Shown: one piece after another, positions 1,977-14,427 of the stretch
Position numbering within the stretch: position 1 is the stretch's first letter
Layout: each line of letters starts with the position of its first letter
IMG/VR virus record: IMGVR_UViG_3300010356_001334
Source: an uncultured virus (IMG/VR IMGVR_UViG_3300010356_001334)
Taxonomy: Duplodnaviria > Heunggongvirae > Uroviricota > Caudoviricetes
Reading direction: 5' to 3' (one strand)
Length of the DNA stretch: 20,000 nucleotides
Made by a program: the position numbers and the translations under genes
The notes under the pieces: model-generated
What the model saw: the letters and a program-made list of their open reading frames with translations, nothing else
The model's database searches: none
What the model was told of the DNA's origin: nothing

Positions 1977-2004
1977 AGGTCTAGAGGCTAAAGCCTCTAG
2001 ACCT
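1977..2004 (+). terminator. Hairpin terminator between the SLT/IS unit and tnpB-2
   Basis: Perfect 12-bp stem AGGTCTAGAGGC-TAAA-GCCTCTAGACCT followed by a T-rich tract. Confidence 0.75.
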
Positions 2005-2020
2005 ATGTCTGTTTAAAAAG

Positions 2021-2046
2021 TTTTTTAGTCATATATATCTTACATG
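2021..2046 (+). promoter_or_regulatory. Putative phage early-type promoter for tnpB-2
   Basis: TTTTTTAGTCATATATATCTTACATG lies between a terminator and the RBS (CCGGAGAA). The TATAT-ATC-N4-ATG layout resembles the TATATTAC early-promoter motif of phiKZ; the resemblance was judged by eye. Confidence 0.45.
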
Positions 2047-2078
2047 CCATTCTTACAGAAACTAAAACCGGAGAAACT

Positions 2079-3281
2079 ATGACTCAAAATCAAAAGCCTC
2101 TGGTCAAAGGCTTTAAGTGCCGTATTTATCCAACAAAAGAACAAAAAGACTATCTTCAAAAAGTCTTTGGTTCTGCTCGGTTTATCTATAACCATCTTTT
2201 AGCTGAATTAAAAGATGAATATGAAAACTATAAAAAAGACCAAAGCATTCAAAGAACACCAATAAATAAAATATCATTAGCCTATAAACTGCCTTCTTTA
2301 AAACAAAAAGAAGAATATCAATGGTTAAACGATGCCCCTGCACAAGTTCTTCAACACGCCAGTGGTCAACTTGCAGAAGCCTTTTTAAGATTCTTTAAAT
2401 CAAAGATTGGATATCCTAGATTTAAATCTAAACACGGTCGACAATCTGTAACGTTTAGTAATCAAATCTATTCAATCGATGGCAATAGACTCAAGCTACT
2501 AAAATGCAAATCTTTGTTTAAAGTTAAGCTTCATCGAGCATTACCGTCATCTGGTTTAAAATCATGCACAGTCAGTAAAACTCCAAGTGGAAAGTATTAT
2601 GCTTCGTTTTTATGTGAGTATATTCCAGAGAAAACATCAGGAACTGGTTTTCTTGGCATTGACGCAGGCATTACTGACTTAGCAACACTTTCAAACGGAC
2701 TTATTCTTCTAAACCCAAAGCACTATGTTAAACAACAATACAGACTAGCGCAACTTTCAAGACGCCTAACTCGTAAACAAAAAGGATCAAAAAATCGAAA
2801 TAAAGCTCGACTTAAAGTTGCTAGACTTCATGATCACATAGCTAATCAGCGCTGTGATTACATGCATAAGTTCACGACAAGCGTCATACGCGAAAACCAA
2901 GCTGTCGCCATCGAGAACTTGCAAATTAGAAACATGATCAAAAACAGACGACTCTCTAAACATATTGCTGACGCAGCATGGGGTGAGATGAGACAGCAAT
3001 TGGCTTATAAAGCTATTGCTAGTCAAAACTGTCTTCTTGTTATTGCTGATCCGTATTATCCGAGTACTCAACTTTGCCATAGATGTAACACAAAACCAAG
3101 TCAGAAAATTAAACTCGGCGTGACAAAGTGGGTATGTGAATACTGCGGAGAAAAACATCAGCGTGATCATAATGCTTCTTTGAATCTTGAAGTCCTGGCA
3201 AGATCTTACTATTATCAGCAAAAGAGAAATGGAGAAATTGCTAGTATTATTTTAGCCAAACCTTATTCTCCGTTAATTTAG
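2079..3281 (+). CDS. tnpB: TnpB RNA-guided endonuclease (TnpB-2), 400 aa, without IS ends
   Basis: GFKCRIYPT..Q...FGSARFIYN; RuvC-I GIDAG, RuvC-II VAIENL, RuvC-III QRDHNAS; complete CHRC...CEYC zinc finger; RBS GGAGA. Confidence 0.96.
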   Translation: MTQNQKPLVKGFKCRIYPTKEQKDYLQKVFGSARFIYNHLLAELKDEYENYKKDQSIQRTPINKISLAYKLPSLKQKEEYQWLNDAPAQVLQHASGQLAEAFLRFFKSKIGYPRFKSKHGRQSVTFSNQIYSIDGNRLKLLKCKSLFKVKLHRALPSSGLKSCTVSKTPSGKYYASFLCEYIPEKTSGTGFLGIDAGITDLATLSNGLILLNPKHYVKQQYRLAQLSRRLTRKQKGSKNRNKARLKVARLHDHIANQRCDYMHKFTTSVIRENQAVAIENLQIRNMIKNRRLSKHIADAAWGEMRQQLAYKAIASQNCLLVIADPYYPSTQLCHRCNTKPSQKIKLGVTKWVCEYCGEKHQRDHNASLNLEVLARSYYYQQKRNGEIASIILAKPYSPLI

Positions 3282-3294
3282 TTAAGATCTTTAG

Positions 3295-3414
3295 TCAAAC
3301 TACCGTAGGGTATACGGGAAGTCAAGCCTGTGGAGAAGATCGTGAAGTAGGCGACTCGATGAAGCAGGAAGATCTGAAGTCTGGACCATACCACATCTTA
3401 ACTGAATGATACGC
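3295..3414 (+). ncRNA. Predicted omegaRNA copy A of TnpB-2: scaffold 3295-3394, guide ~ATCTTAACTGAATGATACGC (3395-3414)
   Basis: Directly after the tnpB-2 stop. Stem CCGTA/TACGG with loop GGGTA complementary to TACC at 3389-3392; GCCTGTGGAG...CTCGATGAAGCAGGAA core typical of tnpB 3' regions. The guide boundary is inferred from the pseudoknot position. Confidence 0.75.
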
Positions 3415-3452
3415 TAGTATCAATTTTAACAAAGCCCTGAAAGGAGAAAATC

Positions 3453-3656
3453 ATGGCTGCTATTCTTATTGTCATCGGATACTTCGCAGTTATCCTGAGT
3501 ATTACGATGCTGTCGATGAAACTGGTCAGGACAAAAATCATTCGAACTTTGTTCATTGGACTGGGTTTGCTCCCAAGTATTCAACTCATTATTCTTGGGG
3601 TCTTACTGGTTGAACTATATGGACAACGCGCTCTTAAAGGAGTTCATCATGAATAA
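3453..3656 (+). CDS. Small membrane protein, 67 aa
   Basis: RBS GAAAGGAG; two hydrophobic stretches separated by basic residues. Confidence 0.75.
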   Translation: MAAILIVIGYFAVILSITMLSMKLVRTKIIRTLFIGLGLLPSIQLIILGVLLVELYGQRALKGVHHE

Positions 3657-3765
3657 GGTTAAAGCTCTTTGCAAGAATGGCAATGGTCTTGTTCGGTCGG
3701 TCCTTCTGATCACCGCTGGTGTCAGTGTCTGGATGTGGCAAATTGCCACCATCCTTGACAAATAA
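3649..3765 (+). CDS. Small hydrophobic protein, 38 aa (MNKVKALCKNGNGLVRSVLLITAGVSVWMWQIATILDK)
   Basis: RBS AAAGGAG before ATG 3649, overlapping the upstream stop; followed by a terminator. This start is preferred over 3556. Confidence 0.6.
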   Translation: MNKVKALCKNGNGLVRSVLLITAGVSVWMWQIATILDK

Positions 3766-3782
3766 AAAATCATCAAATGTCA

Positions 3783-3818
3783 GGAGAGGTTTTAAACCTC
3801 TCCAGCTTTTTCTTTTTG
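3783..3818 (+). terminator. Rho-independent terminator
   Basis: GGAGAGGTTT/AAACCTCTCC stem followed by T-tracts. Confidence 0.7.
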
Positions 3819-3830
3819 AGGATTTAATAA

Positions 3831-4007
3831 ATGCCTTCAAAATCAGAGAAACAAAAGAAGTTCATGGCGGCAATTTGCCACGATGAAGAGTTTGCTAAAA
3901 AGAACCACATTGATCAAGAAGTCGCGTGTGAGTTCTTTGAGGCAGACAAACAAGAAGAAAAGAAGAAACAAGAAAGTGTTGTTGAGAAGTGGTCTAAGAA
4001 GTCTTAA
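3831..4007 (+). CDS. Small phage protein, 58 aa (MPSKSEKQKKFMAAICHDEEFAKKNHIDQEVACEFFEADKQEEKKKQESVVEKWSKKS)
   Basis: Not in the ORF track; translated by hand. RBS GAGGA upstream. The MPSKS.KQ..FMAA..H...FAKK pattern resembles a recurrent small phage protein of unknown function. Confidence 0.7.
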   Translation: MPSKSEKQKKFMAAICHDEEFAKKNHIDQEVACEFFEADKQEEKKKQESVVEKWSKKS

Positions 4008-4048
4008 AACGCGTTCTGTGCCATTTTAATTGATCTAAGGGGTCTGTC

Positions 4049-4459
4049 ATGCTCAAAGAGCTTAATAACGCCATTGGTGGCGCCTATGTGGCTTCTCATT
4101 GTGTTTCTCGTCGTGTTGATCTAGCTGGGATTCGATATGTCTCAGCATCTGATCAAGTTTGGCCTTTTAATCCCAAACTCTATGTAGAACCGATTGAAGT
4201 CGACAGTATCATCTACACAGGAGTCTACACTCTCCTTAAAGAAGATGTCGTTGATGAAGATCAATATAAACTTTCAAACTCTGAAGGTCAATATCATCTT
4301 GGAACAAAACTGGTGATGTTGAAAAACGATCTTCATCTTCAGATTTTTGATGGTGAAGATGCTTGGCACGAATTCATTCCGAAAGGAAGTCAGGTTGCTA
4401 AAGTGCTTCGAAATGGTCGAGTATATTGGGCAGTGATCTATGCTCAAATCATCCATTAA
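4049..4459 (+). CDS. Hypothetical protein, 136 aa
   Basis: ORF with AAGGGG RBS-like sequence; same strand as its neighbours; no recognisable motif. Confidence 0.65.
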   Translation: MLKELNNAIGGAYVASHCVSRRVDLAGIRYVSASDQVWPFNPKLYVEPIEVDSIIYTGVYTLLKEDVVDEDQYKLSNSEGQYHLGTKLVMLKNDLHLQIFDGEDAWHEFIPKGSQVAKVLRNGRVYWAVIYAQIIH

Positions 4460-4480
4460 GAGACCCTGCTCTTAGAAAAA

Positions 4481-4505
4481 AGATAACAGTGTACATCTCT
4501 AGTGA
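4481..4505 (+). promoter_or_regulatory. Putative promoter for the stand-alone omegaRNA
   Basis: AGATAACAGTGTACATCTCTAGTGA has the same ATC-N4-(A/G)TG layout as 2037-2046. It follows a small hairpin (TAAGAG/CTCTTA, 4457-4474) and lies ~25 nt before the scaffold. Confidence 0.35.
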
Positions 4506-4530
4506 GGAAAGCAAGTTATACTAGCAATTC

Positions 4531-4650
4531 TCAAACTACCGTAGGGTATACGGGAAGTCAAGCCTGTGGAGAAAATCGTGAAGTAGGCGACTCGATGAAG
4601 CAGGAAGATCTGAAGTTTAGATCATGCCACATCTCTATTGAACGATGCTA
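4531..4650 (+). ncRNA. Stand-alone omegaRNA copy B: scaffold 4531-4630, guide ~ATCTCTATTGAACGATGCTA (4631-4650)
   Basis: 95/100 identical to 3295-3394 with no tnpB attached. Pseudoknot partner is TGCC (G-U compatible with loop GGTA); hairpin GATCTGA-AGT-TTAGATC at 4607-4623. Confidence 0.75.
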
Positions 4651-4776
4651 CCACACATCGCTTCAGTTCTTTCTTAAAGAGTGGCTTGAGCTCAACACTT
4701 TTTAATGGAAGATTTTCTTAACGCAAGTAGTTTCCTGTGGCAATCTGCCATAATACCATAAATGAAGGAGTAATCT

Positions 4777-5229
4777 ATGTCCCGCGCAAAACGTGATGAG
4801 AATCTGGTCAACGCCATCGCTTCGTCGCTGTCCAAGGTAACCGATGGTGTGATCTCGTCGGACGGTGATGTCTTTAACAGCAATCTGCCGGAAGGTCTGA
4901 CTCCGGAAACGGTTGAAGCAGTTTCCAACTATACCACGGCTTTCGTTGCCAGTGGTCTGGAAGCGGTTGGTAAGGCCGCAGTGTCTGCCATGGAAAAAGA
5001 CAAGAAGCTGAATAATGTTTCGGCTGAAATTCCCATGGGCGCTTTCGGTAGCGTCGGTTACGGTGTAACCCGTAGTCGTGAAGCTGTGGTTCCGGGTACG
5101 GACAAGACCACAACGGTCTATGGCGGCACCAAGGCAAATGTGGCTTTTGTGGCTGGCAAGAACGCTGGTCAACTGGCTGCTGCTAAGCGCTCTATCAAAG
5201 AGATGGCTGAAGAAGCACTGAAGAAGTAA
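4777..5229 (+). CDS. Conserved jumbo-phage hypothetical protein, 150 aa
   Basis: Strong RBS GAAGGAG, biased codon usage like the sheath and tube genes, own terminator. The LPEGLTPETV pattern is recalled from phiKZ-like phage proteins; function not assigned. Confidence 0.85.
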   Translation: MSRAKRDENLVNAIASSLSKVTDGVISSDGDVFNSNLPEGLTPETVEAVSNYTTAFVASGLEAVGKAAVSAMEKDKKLNNVSAEIPMGAFGSVGYGVTRSREAVVPGTDKTTTVYGGTKANVAFVAGKNAGQLAAAKRSIKEMAEEALKK

Positions 5230-6069: not shown

Positions 6070-6105
6070 GACACAGGGAGAAGGCGAAAGCCTTCTCCCT
6101 GTGTC
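6070..6105. terminator. Hairpin terminator downstream of the tail tube gene
   Basis: 16-bp perfect stem GACACAGGGAGAAGGC-GAAA-GCCTTCTCCCTGTGTC. Confidence 0.8.
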
Positions 6106-12759: not shown

Positions 12760-14427
12760 ATGGCAGGTAACGTTGTAGGTTCAGTCGATGGCGTGGTGCC
12801 TATCTATGACCCAGAAGGACTGTGGCGGATCTGGGATATCAATGTTGTCTGGCAGGGTGAATATGGTTCTAATCGTTTTGTTCCTCGTCAGAACGACTAT
12901 GTCATCGACCCCATGACCTTTGAGACATGGATCGTAGACCATCTTGATCCGGTTACGCTGGTTCCGACATTGCGTTCAATTAAACCGGCTGGAATGAACT
13001 ATTCTTTATCTGAAGACGATGTTCTTTTTGGCGTAGGTCCGGGTAGTGACGCTGAGACCTATCGTGCGTATCTGAACGATAGCGTCTATCCGCACACACT
13101 AGCAGTGGATCAACGTCTTAAGATCCATGGAACCATGAGTAGCTATGCTAAGATCTTCTTGGGTTCTGATACCAGTGAAGCGCGCGGTGAAGTGATCTCA
13201 AAGGTTTATGATGCAAGTGGTAACTTTATTTCAACTTCTGTACCACTAGAGCTTGTCGCTTTAGATAGCCATGTTAACTACGCAGTTAAATCAGTTAAAC
13301 GCTGTCACATTACTCGAAAGATTCCAAATAATGAAAGGATCACCGTTGTCATTTATGCTGATGACGGCCATGTCGTCTCTAAGCGACAGCTCCTTATTGA
13401 AAACACGGATACCATTACTGATGTCAACGCCGGTACAAAATACATCACGGAAATCTCCTTGGAATCGATCTGGCTATCTCCTACGGTGGCGGATCAGCTG
13501 GACTATCCGTTAAATATCCCAATGGACGCCCTCAACATGGTGGGCGTCGTCCATTATTCAGATGGGACTAAACTGAAGCTTCCTGTTGATGGTGGTAAGT
13601 TTGCCATGCTAGGTCTTCAGGGTCGTCTTTCGTCAATCATCGGACAACCTCATGAGTTGGTCTTACGCTATCTCATGTCACCAGGTGAAATCGCCTATGC
13701 GTCCACCGGTGTCAACGGGAAGTACATTACCAAACCCTTTAGGATCGTGACAACAAACCCCAATAACAGCATTGCAGTGAAGCTCTTTGGCTATCCTTTC
13801 TGGGAAGGAGAAGCTTTTGGGTATCGCATGCGCTGGTGGTTGCTGAATTTAACACGCAATATTCGGTTTGAAGTGACGAACCATGTTAAGTTTGCAGAAA
13901 ACACAGGACCGTATGACCCTAAACTTTACGGCTACCTTCAAAGAAAGGCTGTCTCGATCAATTTGAGAGACGTCTCTGGTAGCTTTATTCCATTCATCCA
14001 TACACAAGTGGTTGATATCGTCCTGAATGAACCGCCGACAAATGCGCTACAAGCCGCTTGGACTGTCACGACCGAGTCTAATGAGAGCTATCCGCGTTTT
14101 GGGGTTCAAGTCTATGGCTTAAAGAACAATAACCTTGTTAACTTTAAAGCGGGACATGAAACCTTTAATGATTGGTTAAAGGCGTATTATCGTGACACGC
14201 TTCCATTGGTCAATACGCTTCAAGAAAATGAAGCACCTTCTCCAACGCACTTTATTGTGACGTATGGCAATGACCAGACCGAGTGGTCAATTAGTCAATG
14301 GGATCAAGATCTCAATATAAGCGCTACTGTTAATACTGGAACGACTGCGCTGATTCGGTTCATTCGCCGAACTGCGTCAGGTGACCTTCAGTTGAGCTAT
14401 GCGGCTGCAATGATTAAAGGTGTTTAA
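12760..14427 (+). CDS. Virion structural protein (phiKZ gp26-like), 555 aa
   Basis: RBS AGGAGG; G.DG.VP.YDP...W..W N-terminus; beta-rich; third gene of the divergent structural operon. Confidence 0.78.
   Translation: MAGNVVGSVDGVVPIYDPEGLWRIWDINVVWQGEYGSNRFVPRQNDYVIDPMTFETWIVDHLDPVTLVPTLRSIKPAGMNYSLSEDDVLFGVGPGSDAETYRAYLNDSVYPHTLAVDQRLKIHGTMSSYAKIFLGSDTSEARGEVISKVYDASGNFISTSVPLELVALDSHVNYAVKSVKRCHITRKIPNNERITVVIYADDGHVVSKRQLLIENTDTITDVNAGTKYITEISLESIWLSPTVADQLDYPLNIPMDALNMVGVVHYSDGTKLKLPVDGGKFAMLGLQGRLSSIIGQPHELVLRYLMSPGEIAYASTGVNGKYITKPFRIVTTNPNNSIAVKLFGYPFWEGEAFGYRMRWWLLNLTRNIRFEVTNHVKFAENTGPYDPKLYGYLQRKAVSINLRDVSGSFIPFIHTQVVDIVLNEPPTNALQAAWTVTTESNESYPRFGVQVYGLKNNNLVNFKAGHETFNDWLKAYYRDTLPLVNTLQENEAPSPTHFIVTYGNDQTEWSISQWDQDLNISATVNTGTTALIRFIRRTASGDLQLSYAAAMIKGV

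Follow-up and report, generated by a model that had tools for sequence, protein, structure and literature searches.

Why should the guides of two TnpB-associated units resemble the DNA that lies at the start of those same units? This question was raised by a stretch of 20,000 nucleotides of viral DNA (the window, by which we mean the whole of the DNA analysed), which derives from a phiKZ-like jumbo phage and for which a Pfam scan of the open reading frames (ORFs) across the 20 kb identified two tnpB genes. The first of these is as follows.

551-1762: tnpB ORF no. 1, with PF12323, PF01385 and PF07282 all above cut-off

The second, tnpB-2, belongs to a unit that we refer to as cassette A, and a far shorter unit, B, lies downstream of it. 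An earlier note, made from the sequence alone, had proposed that each guide resembles the putative promoter of its own unit. The reading we prefer, to which we give a probability of roughly 0.7, is that these are homing-type selfish cassettes that have captured promoter-like modules of the phage, accompanied by a guide-only hitchhiker, and that the resemblances are footprints of insertion.

Two insertions relative to sister phages

The sister phages compared were G002 (a 73-kb contig), L196, L197 and one X4 contig; the nearest record, G001, ends at about position 6100 of the window with sites A and B uncovered. Site A is empty and site B filled in G002, both sites are empty in L197, and L196 has an empty site B and a variant sequence at site A. 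The single X4 contig is missing exactly 1358 and 136 bases by comparison with the window. The alleles without cassette A (G002, L197 and the X4 contig) keep one ATCTTA at the joint, and those without unit B (L196, L197 and the X4 contig) keep a single 13-mer. The two insertions and their junctions have the following limits.

2037..3394, + strand: cassette A, a 1,358-bp insertion consisting of a short leader (2037-2078), tnpB-2 and a guide-RNA scaffold
2037..2042, + strand: ATCTTA, the repeat at the left junction, with which cassette A opens and which together with the flank rebuilds TATATATCTTAC
4495..4630, + strand: unit B, 136 bp, of which the first 11 nt are target-like, the next 25 nt a spacer and the last 100 nt scaffold, with no tnpB
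4493..4505, + strand: left copy of a 13-nt direct repeat, ACATCTCTAGTGA, with G at position 8
4629..4641, + strand: right copy of the 13-nt repeat, ACATCTCTATTGA, in which 2 nt from the end of the scaffold are followed by the opening 11 nt of guide B

Unit B lacks a protein gene, and the sole ORF across it (4502-4705) is a frame that runs through the scaffold.

The strings on which the earlier proposal was built are present where it placed them: ATCTTACATG at 2037-2046 and ATCTTAACTG at 3395-3404 for A, and ATCTCTAGTGA at 4495-4505 and ATCTCTATTGA at 4631-4641 for B, with AC before both B copies. The likeness claimed for B was borne out, as ACATCTCTATTGA with at most one mismatch occurs in the 20 kb only at these two places, where about 0.06 occurrences are expected, and a single one of 200 shuffles reached two matches. 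The A pair (8/10) is also present but alone is not above chance, there being 32 matches with at most two mismatches against 24.5 expected; it has meaning only because the empty alleles show ATCTTA to be the junction repeat of the 1,358-bp insertion. The two guides do resemble each other, with 12 of 16 positions identical.

The background-level count for the A pair is what one would obtain if the likenesses were accidents of AT-rich intergenic strings. The 13-mer pair, however, is far above background, and both pairs fall exactly on junctions set by independent empty alleles. Chance is a negligible explanation, refuted for B by the 13-mer statistics together with the empty alleles, and for A by the position of the junction.

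Both insertions lie within promoter-like modules

The intergenic modules that contain the two sites have a common order: a T-rich stretch, an AT-rich box, ATCT(T/A)A..TGA and, beyond a variable hairpin and a T-run, a ribosome-binding site and ATG. The box is of two classes, ending in ...CATATAT or, in a diverged class, in ...GTGTAC.

1977..2004, + strand: terminator-like hairpin of the preceding SLT-like gene, a 12-pair stem followed by a T-rich tail
2013..2036, + strand: upstream half of module A, the T-rich stretch and the AT-rich box ...AGTCATATAT, whose last 5-6 nt are a candidate TAM
4465..4494, + strand: module B, upstream half (...GAAAAAAGATAACAGTGTAC), with GTGTAC as a candidate TAM; the module is a paralogue of module A that has diverged

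At site A the intergenic module begins with this hairpin, which is also found before the empty site in G002, L196 and L197. Similarly, the string at 2013..2036 stands before the uninterrupted module in G002, L197 and L196, and that at 4465..4494 is identical in the empty alleles of L196 and L197. A second paralogue of module B, containing ATCTCTAGTGA, was identified at 37506 in G002 and at 3114 in G001. In the 73 kb of G002, TATATATCT was observed 6 times against 0.52 expected, and four of the six copies are followed at +63 to +71 by GGAG..ATG.

The early promoters of phiKZ have been described as a T-rich region with an extended -10 box and, in another description, as an AT-rich motif of about 10 nt centred near -10. 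The architecture and enrichment of the modules agree with these descriptions of phiKZ-type early promoters, and we infer from architecture and position that modules A and B would act as promoters. A sigma-70-type promoter was not called upstream of unit B.

Cassette A and unit B are each inserted exactly between the AT-rich box and ATCT, so that the guide is the first 16-20 nt of the displaced downstream half; guides A and B are alike because modules A and B are paralogous. Each cassette also opens with a short copy of the downstream half (ATCTTA in A, the 13-nt string in B). Since the left copy joins the box to an ATCT... start, the core of the putative promoter is left intact before the cassette, from where it presumably transcribes tnpB-2 and the guide RNAs. 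Siting within promoter-like modules would give the cassettes cost-free transcription. The likeness of each guide to its own unit is thus real as an insertion footprint, and a special design for targeting promoters is not indicated.

TnpB-2, its guides and their targets

The components of the putative nuclease system were assigned as follows.

2079..3281, + strand: tnpB-2, 400 aa, an RNA-guided nuclease of ISDra2 type
3295..3394, + strand: omegaRNA scaffold A, the part common to unit B
3395..3414, + strand: guide A, the right flank, where the downstream half of the split module A begins
4631..4650, + strand: guide B, the right flank, in the downstream half of module B

TnpB-2 matched HTH_OrfB_IS605 (PF12323), OrfB_IS605 (PF01385) and Cas12f1-like_TNB (PF07282), all above cut-off, which supply the HTH, RuvC and zinc-ribbon domains of a TnpB. 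Its best solved relative is the ISDra2 TnpB (8H1J, E 2.5e-67), with ISFba1 at E 3.2e-37. Residues D195, E279 and D363 are invariant among 25 aligned relatives and align with the motifs of 8H1J; judged by this alignment, the D-E-D triad is intact and TnpB-2 is predicted to be catalytically intact.

A 116-nt repeat from scaffold A is 92% identical to 4531-4646. Scaffold A does not have the terminal hairpin that is kept by unit B and the rest of the family and may function poorly as a consequence; the start of its RNA may lie upstream, inside tnpB-2. The boundary between scaffold and guide that the earlier note had drawn at CCAC/ATCT fits the family. Among 21 viral loci that share the RNA core, 18 have a 3' end in TCAC, after which the copies diverge; one of the other three ends in CCAC (unit B of the sister phage) and two could not be placed. 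This pattern fits scaffolds that end at ...CAC, with the adjacent flank as the putative guide.

Perfect targets are present in the sister phages. Guide A matches the empty allele of L197 at 20/20 positions, that of G002 at 19/20 and the L196 variant at 16/20, and guide B matches the empty alleles of L196 and L197 at 16/16 (19/20 when taken over 20 nt). By comparison, the units' own left copies match the guides at 8/16 (A) and 11/16 (B). In this window the identity of left copy and guide breaks off after 6 nt in A and 7 nt in B, so that the occupied allele should escape cutting. TnpB-2 with guide A, and probably with guide B in trans, would be expected to cleave the vacant alleles of sister phages that infect the same cell, and repair of the break would copy the cassette in, that is, homing, if the family's known behavior applies here. 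Of the options offered earlier, that in which the guides target early promoters of related phages while the self copies escape by mismatch stands in a plainer form, as the related phages do carry perfect targets, namely these two loci in their uninterrupted form. This conforms to the usual rule for TnpB, by which the right flank serves as the guide. The option of homing into promoters with rebuilding of a resistant variant fits the comparison of filled and empty alleles, the left junction of cassette A still carrying the module core TATATATCTTAC.

The bases 5' of the left copies had been put forward as TAM candidates. ATATAT does recur in the window, in G002, L197 and L196 and in one unrelated context, standing each time before cassette A or the vacant site. 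ISGst2 TnpB2 has the TAM TTTAT, its element ends in TTCAC (PMC10055086), and ATATAT/TATAT is a reasonable TAM candidate given its resemblance to TTTAT; GTGTAC at site B differs from it. The 5' flanks TATAT (A) and TGTAC (B) agree at 3 of 5 positions only, and consequently one TnpB may not serve both guides.

The remaining option of the earlier note was autoregulation, in which seed-only binding of TnpB and guide at the left copies represses the cassette's own promoter, as in TldR, the nuclease-dead repressors of prophages. The left copies adjoin a TAM-like flank over the presumed start region, the left copy in G002 matches guide B over 11 contiguous nt, and some TldR use guides of 9-11 nt to block promoters (PMC10705468). 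There is a further likeness to TldR in that the guide matches a promoter-like region beside a candidate TAM in a phage setting (same source). We nevertheless consider autoregulation quite improbable: the catalytic triad of TnpB-2 is retained, contiguous matches from position 1 in this window extend just 6 nt (A) and 7 nt (B), and the repeats are wholly explained as junctions. Unlike those of TldR, the perfect targets here are vacant insertion sites and not a host promoter.

A possible anti-guide was considered and rejected. The minus strand at 3273-3288 matches guide A at 13 of 16 positions and the two are paired in the predicted fold, but the fold was no better than shuffles (z -1.39) and such a match is not rare across the window (0.46 expected).

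Unit B has moved recently

Unit B has spread laterally. It is identical at 134 of 136 positions between the window and G002, lineages whose flanks are 83-92% identical, which indicates recent movement. At position 8 of the repeat the left copy has G, as does G002; L196, L197 and the right copy in the window have T. As the left copy has the G002-type G where the local target has T, it arrived with the cassette. In the same way, a relative of cassette A with 96% identity, located in another genomic context, shares sequence beginning at 2031, so that the left ATCTTA string also travels with its cassette. Unit B shows that a bare guide-RNA gene can itself be a mobile parasite.

One observation does not sit easily with homing. 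The tract of donor type at unit B reaches no further than 9 nt beyond its left end and 8 nt beyond its right end. With flanks about 88% identical, homing recombination would be expected to co-convert flanking markers, and so short a tract counts against it.

The ends of the cassettes are not of transposase type

We found no transposase-type hairpins at the ends of cassettes A and B, where folds were no better than shuffles. The left ends of A and B gave -3.6 and -3.2 kcal/mol (z -0.33 and -0.94), and of the right ends A has no hairpin and B only a 6-pair stem. By contrast with these ends, the hairpins at the ends of IS-1, also in the window, are clear, and IS-1 has no junction repeat. A search for tnpA among 18 ORFs of the window found none.

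These results bear on the possibility that the units moved by IS200/IS605 transposition, in which a Y1 TnpA acted in trans, the left boundary shifted so as to capture the first bases of the target, and the extended element re-inserted beside the same TAM in an intact copy. Alternative boundaries are tolerated and flanking sequence can be captured in this family, and most tnpB elements are without tnpA and thought to be moved in trans (PMC10055086); moreover, both right junctions lie directly 3' of a short motif, as the rule for the family demands. Such a route is unlikely, in our view, as the subterminal hairpins seen in IS-1 are missing from A and B, the 18 ORFs scanned include no tnpA, and the terminal hairpin of scaffold A is degenerate.

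Cassette A is nonetheless like the IS200/IS605 elements ISDra2 and ISGst2 in its TnpB domains and intact D-E-D triad. The scaffold here is likewise at the right end, with ...CAC resembling the TTCAC of ISGst2, and the guide is likewise the right flank, which matches the vacant site beside a short 5' motif. The differences, in addition to the end hairpins and tnpA, are that these cassettes reside in a jumbo phage of lytic type, inside promoter-like modules, and that junction repeats of 6 and 13 nt are present here, of which the empty alleles keep a single copy. IS200/IS605 elements have been described as making no target duplication, and the 6-nt and 13-nt repeats are therefore unexplained by the chemistry of the family.

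A possible origin of the junction repeats

An alternative account of the repeats is that they are scars of an insertion that did not depend on a transposase: TnpB cuts, gap repair that copies the donor leftward from the guide side is aborted, and the broken left end is sealed by end-joining. The broken left end would keep about 11 nt of target, generating a TAM-proximal duplication, often with a guide-only stump, and the repeats would have no function. This account agrees with our preferred reading except on why the repeats exist.

In the 21-locus family, only L178 and the sister unit B stand out for a guide-start repeat in the upstream DNA, and 6-nt matches in L179 and L192 were at control level. 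Unit B and L178 (where TATCTGTTTAT occurs 357 bp apart) are two independent units without tnpB that have 11-nt guide-start repeats, with control fractions of 0.00 and 0.01, and none of 10 tnpB-bearing loci of the family had a prefix match above controls. In addition, cleavage by related TnpBs falls 16 nt from the TAM on the non-target strand and 22 nt from it on the target strand. We regard the scar account as possible though doubtful, since the repeat occurs in only 2 of 8 clearly tnpB-less loci of the family and the full-length cassette A has 6 nt only. Furthermore, the left copy of B equals the consensus of its module class (as at 37506 in G002), and promoter mimicry would suffice without duplication.

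Homing-type capture of promoter-like modules remains our preferred reading. The role accepted for TnpB is to restore the transposon at its own donor site after excision by TnpA. We raise, as a speculation that is itself rather unlikely, a broader idea: that transposase-less TnpB cassettes insert by an RNA-guided, TnpA-independent route of their own, which duplicates the first ~6-13 nt of the target and spawns guide-only mini-elements. If this were true, guide-only units such as the 136-bp unit B would pass from one phage genome to another with the help of TnpB borrowed in trans, and a guide-like repeat would be the signature of an undescribed insertion mechanism with a preference for early promoters in jumbo phages. 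Were such repeats general, they would suggest that the ancestors of Cas12 had a second way of inserting.

Comparison with other mobile elements

Unit B resembles PATEs, which are non-autonomous elements that encode an omegaRNA alone: it has no protein gene, and its guide RNA would depend on TnpB supplied in trans, as has been proposed for PATEs (PMC10055086). It differs from them in its 136-bp size with no clear palindromic ends, its flanking 13-nt direct repeat, and its being seen as present or absent among sister phages and near-identical across diverged lineages.

Another resemblance is to Seg and Mob, the free-standing homing endonucleases of the T-even phages, as in both cases a nuclease cassette lies between conserved genes and is present or absent among sister phages, and the expected target, as far as sequence can indicate, would be the unoccupied allele of a co-infecting phage. 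Target choice here would be made by an RNA guide and a short motif, whereas it is made by the protein in Seg and Mob. The occupied allele here would also be protected by the insertion itself, and the nuclease can carry a guide-only unit as a separate passenger.

The scaffold contains the core CCUGUGGAG...CGAUGAAGCAGGAA of RAGATH-18, the reRNA of IS607-type elements such as ISFba1. However, the Rfam scores of 27.1 and 26.6 bits are below the gathering score of 44.9, about 25 nt lie 3' of the core here as against 64 nt, and the flanks TATAT/TGTAC differ from the IS607-type TAMs AGGAG or GAGGG. TnpB-2 is also closer to ISDra2 than to ISFba1. Rfam searches of 15 loci of distant relatives (35-46% identity) gave no RAGATH-18 match.

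The natural filled and empty alleles indicate that both units, a tnpB cassette that has no tnpA and a guide-only unit of 136 bp, behave like homing elements between virus genomes, and these alleles supply ready-made pairs of target and guide for tests of TnpB homing in phage co-infection. They also document short junction repeats that the known chemistry of the family does not predict. Neither junction repeats at TnpA-less TnpB cassettes nor mobile guide-only units in phages were found described in a literature search that covered article listings and passages of PMC13565253, PMC10055086 and PMC10705468.

Relatives, composition and transcript coverage

The region had no match as DNA among GenBank phages, near or distant. 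A protein search with the SLT-like ORF also gave no match, and the ORF150 protein had weak matches only, of about 25-32% identity. The exact 60-nt scaffold pattern had no match in viral contigs, the sister phage differing by one base, and a search with TnpB-2 alone found no close relative among the viral contigs. Distant relatives were identified at 35-46% identity in the genome and viral collections; these were left out of the analysis of ends, as their ends could not be placed without empty sites. The GC content of cassette A is 37%, compared to 42% for the backbone. Lastly, tnpB-2 and unit B are covered by RNA contigs, whose source is a metatranscriptome that possibly includes DNA.

Insertions and empty alleles in sister phages

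Cassette A (1,358 bp, 2037-3394: leader, tnpB-2 and scaffold) and unit B (136 bp, 4495-4630: guide RNA only) were shown to be two insertions with exact limits inside paralogous promoter-like modules, and sister phages carry perfect targets for their guides. These guides (guide A, 3395-3414; guide B, 4631-4650) are the right flanks of the insertions. The right two-thirds of the window is that of a phiKZ-like jumbo phage, with tail tube, gp29-like sheath, gp28 vertex protein and DUF7193 (Pfam), and the left 5.3 kb holds the following genes.

Genes in the left 5.3 kb
131-496, SLT-like gene
551-1762, tnpB-1 (Pfam HTH_OrfB_IS605, OrfB_IS605, Cas12f1-like_TNB)
2079-3281, tnpB-2 (same three Pfam families)
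four small ORFs
4777-5229, 150-aa ORF downstream of unit B

The 150-aa ORF matched no Pfam family and had only weak matches, to Erwinia and Bacillus jumbo phages (25-32% identity). It had the top summed contig depth in a metatranscriptome run (58 in bin 4681-4860).

Sister phages were identified via the flanking genes. Two loci (L194, L195) were from the same phage as the window (99.9% identity). L197 had neither cassette A nor unit B, G002 (loci L163/L164) had unit B and lacked cassette A and IS-1, the other tnpB element of the window, and L196 was without unit B and carried, at site A, a variant module together with an additional ORF. In addition, one 2,139-nt contig from public run X4 had exact gaps of 1358 bases, between 2039 and 3398, and of 136 bases, between 4492 and 4629.

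Junctions of empty and filled alleles (slash, junction)
Site A, empty: ...CATATAT/ATCTTAACTGAATGATACGC
Site A, filled: ...CATATAT/ATCTTACATGCC...CCAC/ATCTTAACTGAATGATACGC
Site B, empty: ...AGTGTAC/ATCTCTATTGAACGATGCC
Site B, filled: ...AGTGTAC/ATCTCTAGTGAGGAAAGC...GCCAC/ATCTCTATTGAACGATGCT

Guide A matched the empty alleles of L197 and G002 at 20/20 and 19/20 positions, respectively, and the L196 variant at 16/20; guide B matched L196 and L197 at 16/16 (19/20) each. The empty-site alleles and perfect matches in related phages to which the earlier note had looked were found, for guide A in L197 and for guide B in both L196 and L197.

At L196 4473-4796, the variant module reads ATTTTAAATGAACGAT and agrees with guide A at 13/16 positions, differing at 3, 8 and 13. 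It is followed, before the membrane-protein ORF, by the additional ORF, which is Cys-rich and ~107 aa long, and this promoter-proximal site resembles a gene-gain hotspot.

Origin of the guides and left copies

The four strings that the earlier note had reported as resembling each other were all present at their positions. For the site B pair, ACATCTCTATTGA with at most one mismatch was found only at 4493 and 4629 in the 20 kb (0.06 expected), well above chance. The 8/10 likeness of the site A pair was not by itself above chance (32 such matches versus 24.5 expected). The reported likeness between the two guides was upheld (12/16 identical). Left copies, starting at 2037 and 4495, agreed with their own guides at 8/16 and 11/16 positions, respectively. 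Each cassette starts with a short copy of the downstream half of the module, so that the left junction still reads TATATATCTTAC at site A or GTACATCTCTAGTGA at site B, and the guide is the first part of the displaced downstream half.

Two observations showed that the left copies belong to the cassettes and travel with them. The unit B left copy has G at position 8, matching both copies in G002, and the local target has T there in L196, L197 and the right copy of the window. In runs X4, X10 and X19, a relative 96% identical to cassette A (55 differences in 1351) has other genomic surroundings; it shares sequence from 2031 onwards, and its preceding 30 nt are unlike the window.

The target module

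In the 73-kb sister contig G002 there were six copies of TATATATCT (0.52 expected), four of which had a common layout: a terminator-like end, a T-rich stretch, (C)AGTCA or AGCCA, TATATATCT(T/A)AC(T)TGA, a hairpin with a copy-specific stem, a T-run and GGAG..ATG at +63 to +71. Site A is itself such a copy, and L197 has a further one directly before its SLT gene. The module at site B is of a diverged class, ...GAAAAAAGAT..CA..TAC(AT)ATCTCTAGTGA, with a paralogue at G002 37506 and G001 3114. Both insertions fall precisely at the point where the AT-rich box meets ATCT. The phiKZ-type early promoter has been described as a conserved AT-rich motif that is ~10 nt long and centred near -10 (PMC7598289), and as an extended -10 box that has a T-rich region 5' of -19 (PMC8244752). 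The module layout fits these descriptions, and we interpret the modules as putative phiKZ-type early promoters.

The site B paralogue (minus strand), TACATATCTCTAGTGACGAG, agrees with the sister phage's guide B over the initial 11 nt, adjacent to a TACAT flank, and may serve that phage as a partial self-target. Hairpins followed by a T-run occur after ATCT..TGA at G002 3533, 19002, 33672 and 66208 (minus strand) and at 3407-3422 of the window; their stems vary yet pair (GATGCTA-tcat-TAGCATC, GATGCTA-ccaa-TAGCATC, TGATAC-gcta-GTATCA), and could be a conserved 5'-leader structure or attenuator-like element. Two TATATATCT boxes pointing apart around a GC-rich palindrome, GGCGCGAAGCGCC (G002 48430-48460; G001 14035-14065), look like a divergent promoter pair.

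Scaffold RNA and its boundary with the guide

A direct repeat of 116 nt (92% identical) follows tnpB-2 at 3295-3410 and stands alone at 4531-4646. Both copies gave a sub-threshold match to the RAGATH-18 core (27 bits versus a gathering score of 44.9), and an ISFba1-type RAGATH-18 system was rejected. Scanning viral contigs for the RNA core identified 21 loci that have, downstream of it, a hairpin and then a short terminal motif: GTTCAC in 15 (including L184), AGTCAC in three, GCCAC in one (the sister phage's unit B) and not placeable in two. In near-identical scaffolds (L174/L187 and L182/L190) divergence starts directly after the terminal CAC, and Geobacillus ISGst2 has the same motif at its terminus, TTCAC (preprint PMC10055086). 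Together, these data supported the scaffold/guide boundary of the earlier note, CCAC/ATCT.

Unit B has a hairpin of 5-6 pairs (4617-4630) as the final stem-loop ahead of the guide, and in cassette A (3381-3394) four transitions break it. The match of the 96% relative also ends at 3381, making this the most variable part of the scaffold. Guide A (3395-3410) agrees with the minus strand of 3273-3288, a segment spanning the stop codon of tnpB-2, at 13/16 positions, the first 9 nt perfectly; the two segments are complementary. The minimum-energy fold pairs these segments, closing the whole scaffold, and was not better than shuffles.

Activity, mobility and junction repeats

The best solved relative of TnpB-2 was ISDra2 TnpB (E 2.5e-67), and D195, E279 and D363 were invariant among 25 relatives; a TldR-type repressor was rejected on these grounds. 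Cassette A has a GC content of 37% versus 42% for the backbone. Unit B is 134/136 identical between the window and G002, against 83-92% for the surrounding intergenic and coding DNA, and is missing from L196 and L197, which are closer to the window than G002. By this comparison, recent lateral spread of unit B fits better than old inheritance.

Metatranscriptome contigs covered a tnpB-2 relative, and one (4546-4772) reached from scaffold B to the 150-aa ORF leader, DNA carry-over being possible. Two RNA-library contigs of run X19 start immediately after sequencing-adapter letters, at 3419 (24 nt downstream of scaffold A) and at 4546 (15 nt into scaffold B), starts that only hint at RNA ends.

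No subterminal hairpins were found at the ends of cassette A or unit B, and no tnpA among the 18 window ORFs scanned. IS-1, an internal control, has end hairpins and no junction repeat. The junction repeats are 6 nt (cassette A) and 13 nt (unit B), whereas IS200/IS605 elements are described as generating no target duplication. By tnpB, the 21 loci comprised ten with the gene upstream (three being one element with a split tnpB), eight without it within 2.5 kb, two with only fragments of it and one cut by a contig end. A guide-start repeat was present in 2/8 tnpB-less units and 0/10 full-length units; the tnpB-less L178 carries its 11-nt guide start, TATCTGTTTAT, a second time in direct orientation 357 bp upstream. 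These repeats could have arisen from gap repair that was aborted and joined at the TnpB cut, from capture of a boundary by TnpA before re-insertion, or from selection for a promoter-completing leader.

L178, L174 and L187 (the latter two on the same 170-kb viral contig) are tnpB-less guide-RNA units in other large viral contigs, with a sigma-70-like -10 box (TATAAT or TATACT) a few bases upstream of the conserved GTAGGG scaffold start.

Proposed mechanism

As established for the family (PMC10055086), TnpB and its guide cleave a vacant site adjoining a TAM, and recombination restores the element. We propose that during co-infection TnpB-2 would cut vacant modules in sister phages and the cassette would be copied in, with unit B borrowing TnpB in trans. 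The rebuilt promoter core would drive cassette transcription, and the occupied allele would be spared, as its identity to the guide ends after 6-7 nt. The TATAT flank 5' of site A is a TAM candidate resembling the TTTAT TAM of ISGst2 TnpB2; the TGTAC flank of site B agrees with it at only 3/5 positions, and service of guide B by TnpB-2 is therefore uncertain. Such a system would resemble both IS605-type TnpB elements and phage homing cassettes in the way it works, but A and B differ from the IS605-type family in lacking end hairpins and in having junction repeats.

The earlier note's proposals were partly right. Its targeting of early promoters in related phages holds in the plainer sense that the perfect targets are empty alleles in sister phages, and its homing into promoters in the plainer sense that the insertions lie inside promoter-like modules with a left copy rebuilding the core. 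Seed-only autorepression was unsupported.

The IS-1 element

IS-1 (455-1912) belongs to the classical IS605-type elements and has clear end hairpins; it is inserted after ...AAACTAC within the SLT-like gene and terminates in ...GTCAA; its guide RNA region had a weak HgcC match (E 0.0016). L196 has an element at the same site (2741-4159), with ends 90-97% identical to IS-1 and a tnpB middle of 72%. Compared with G002, L197 and L196, the window SLT gene is missing ~129 bp immediately right of IS-1, so that the IS-1 guide now reads a different flank, GTTCCTAAAG...
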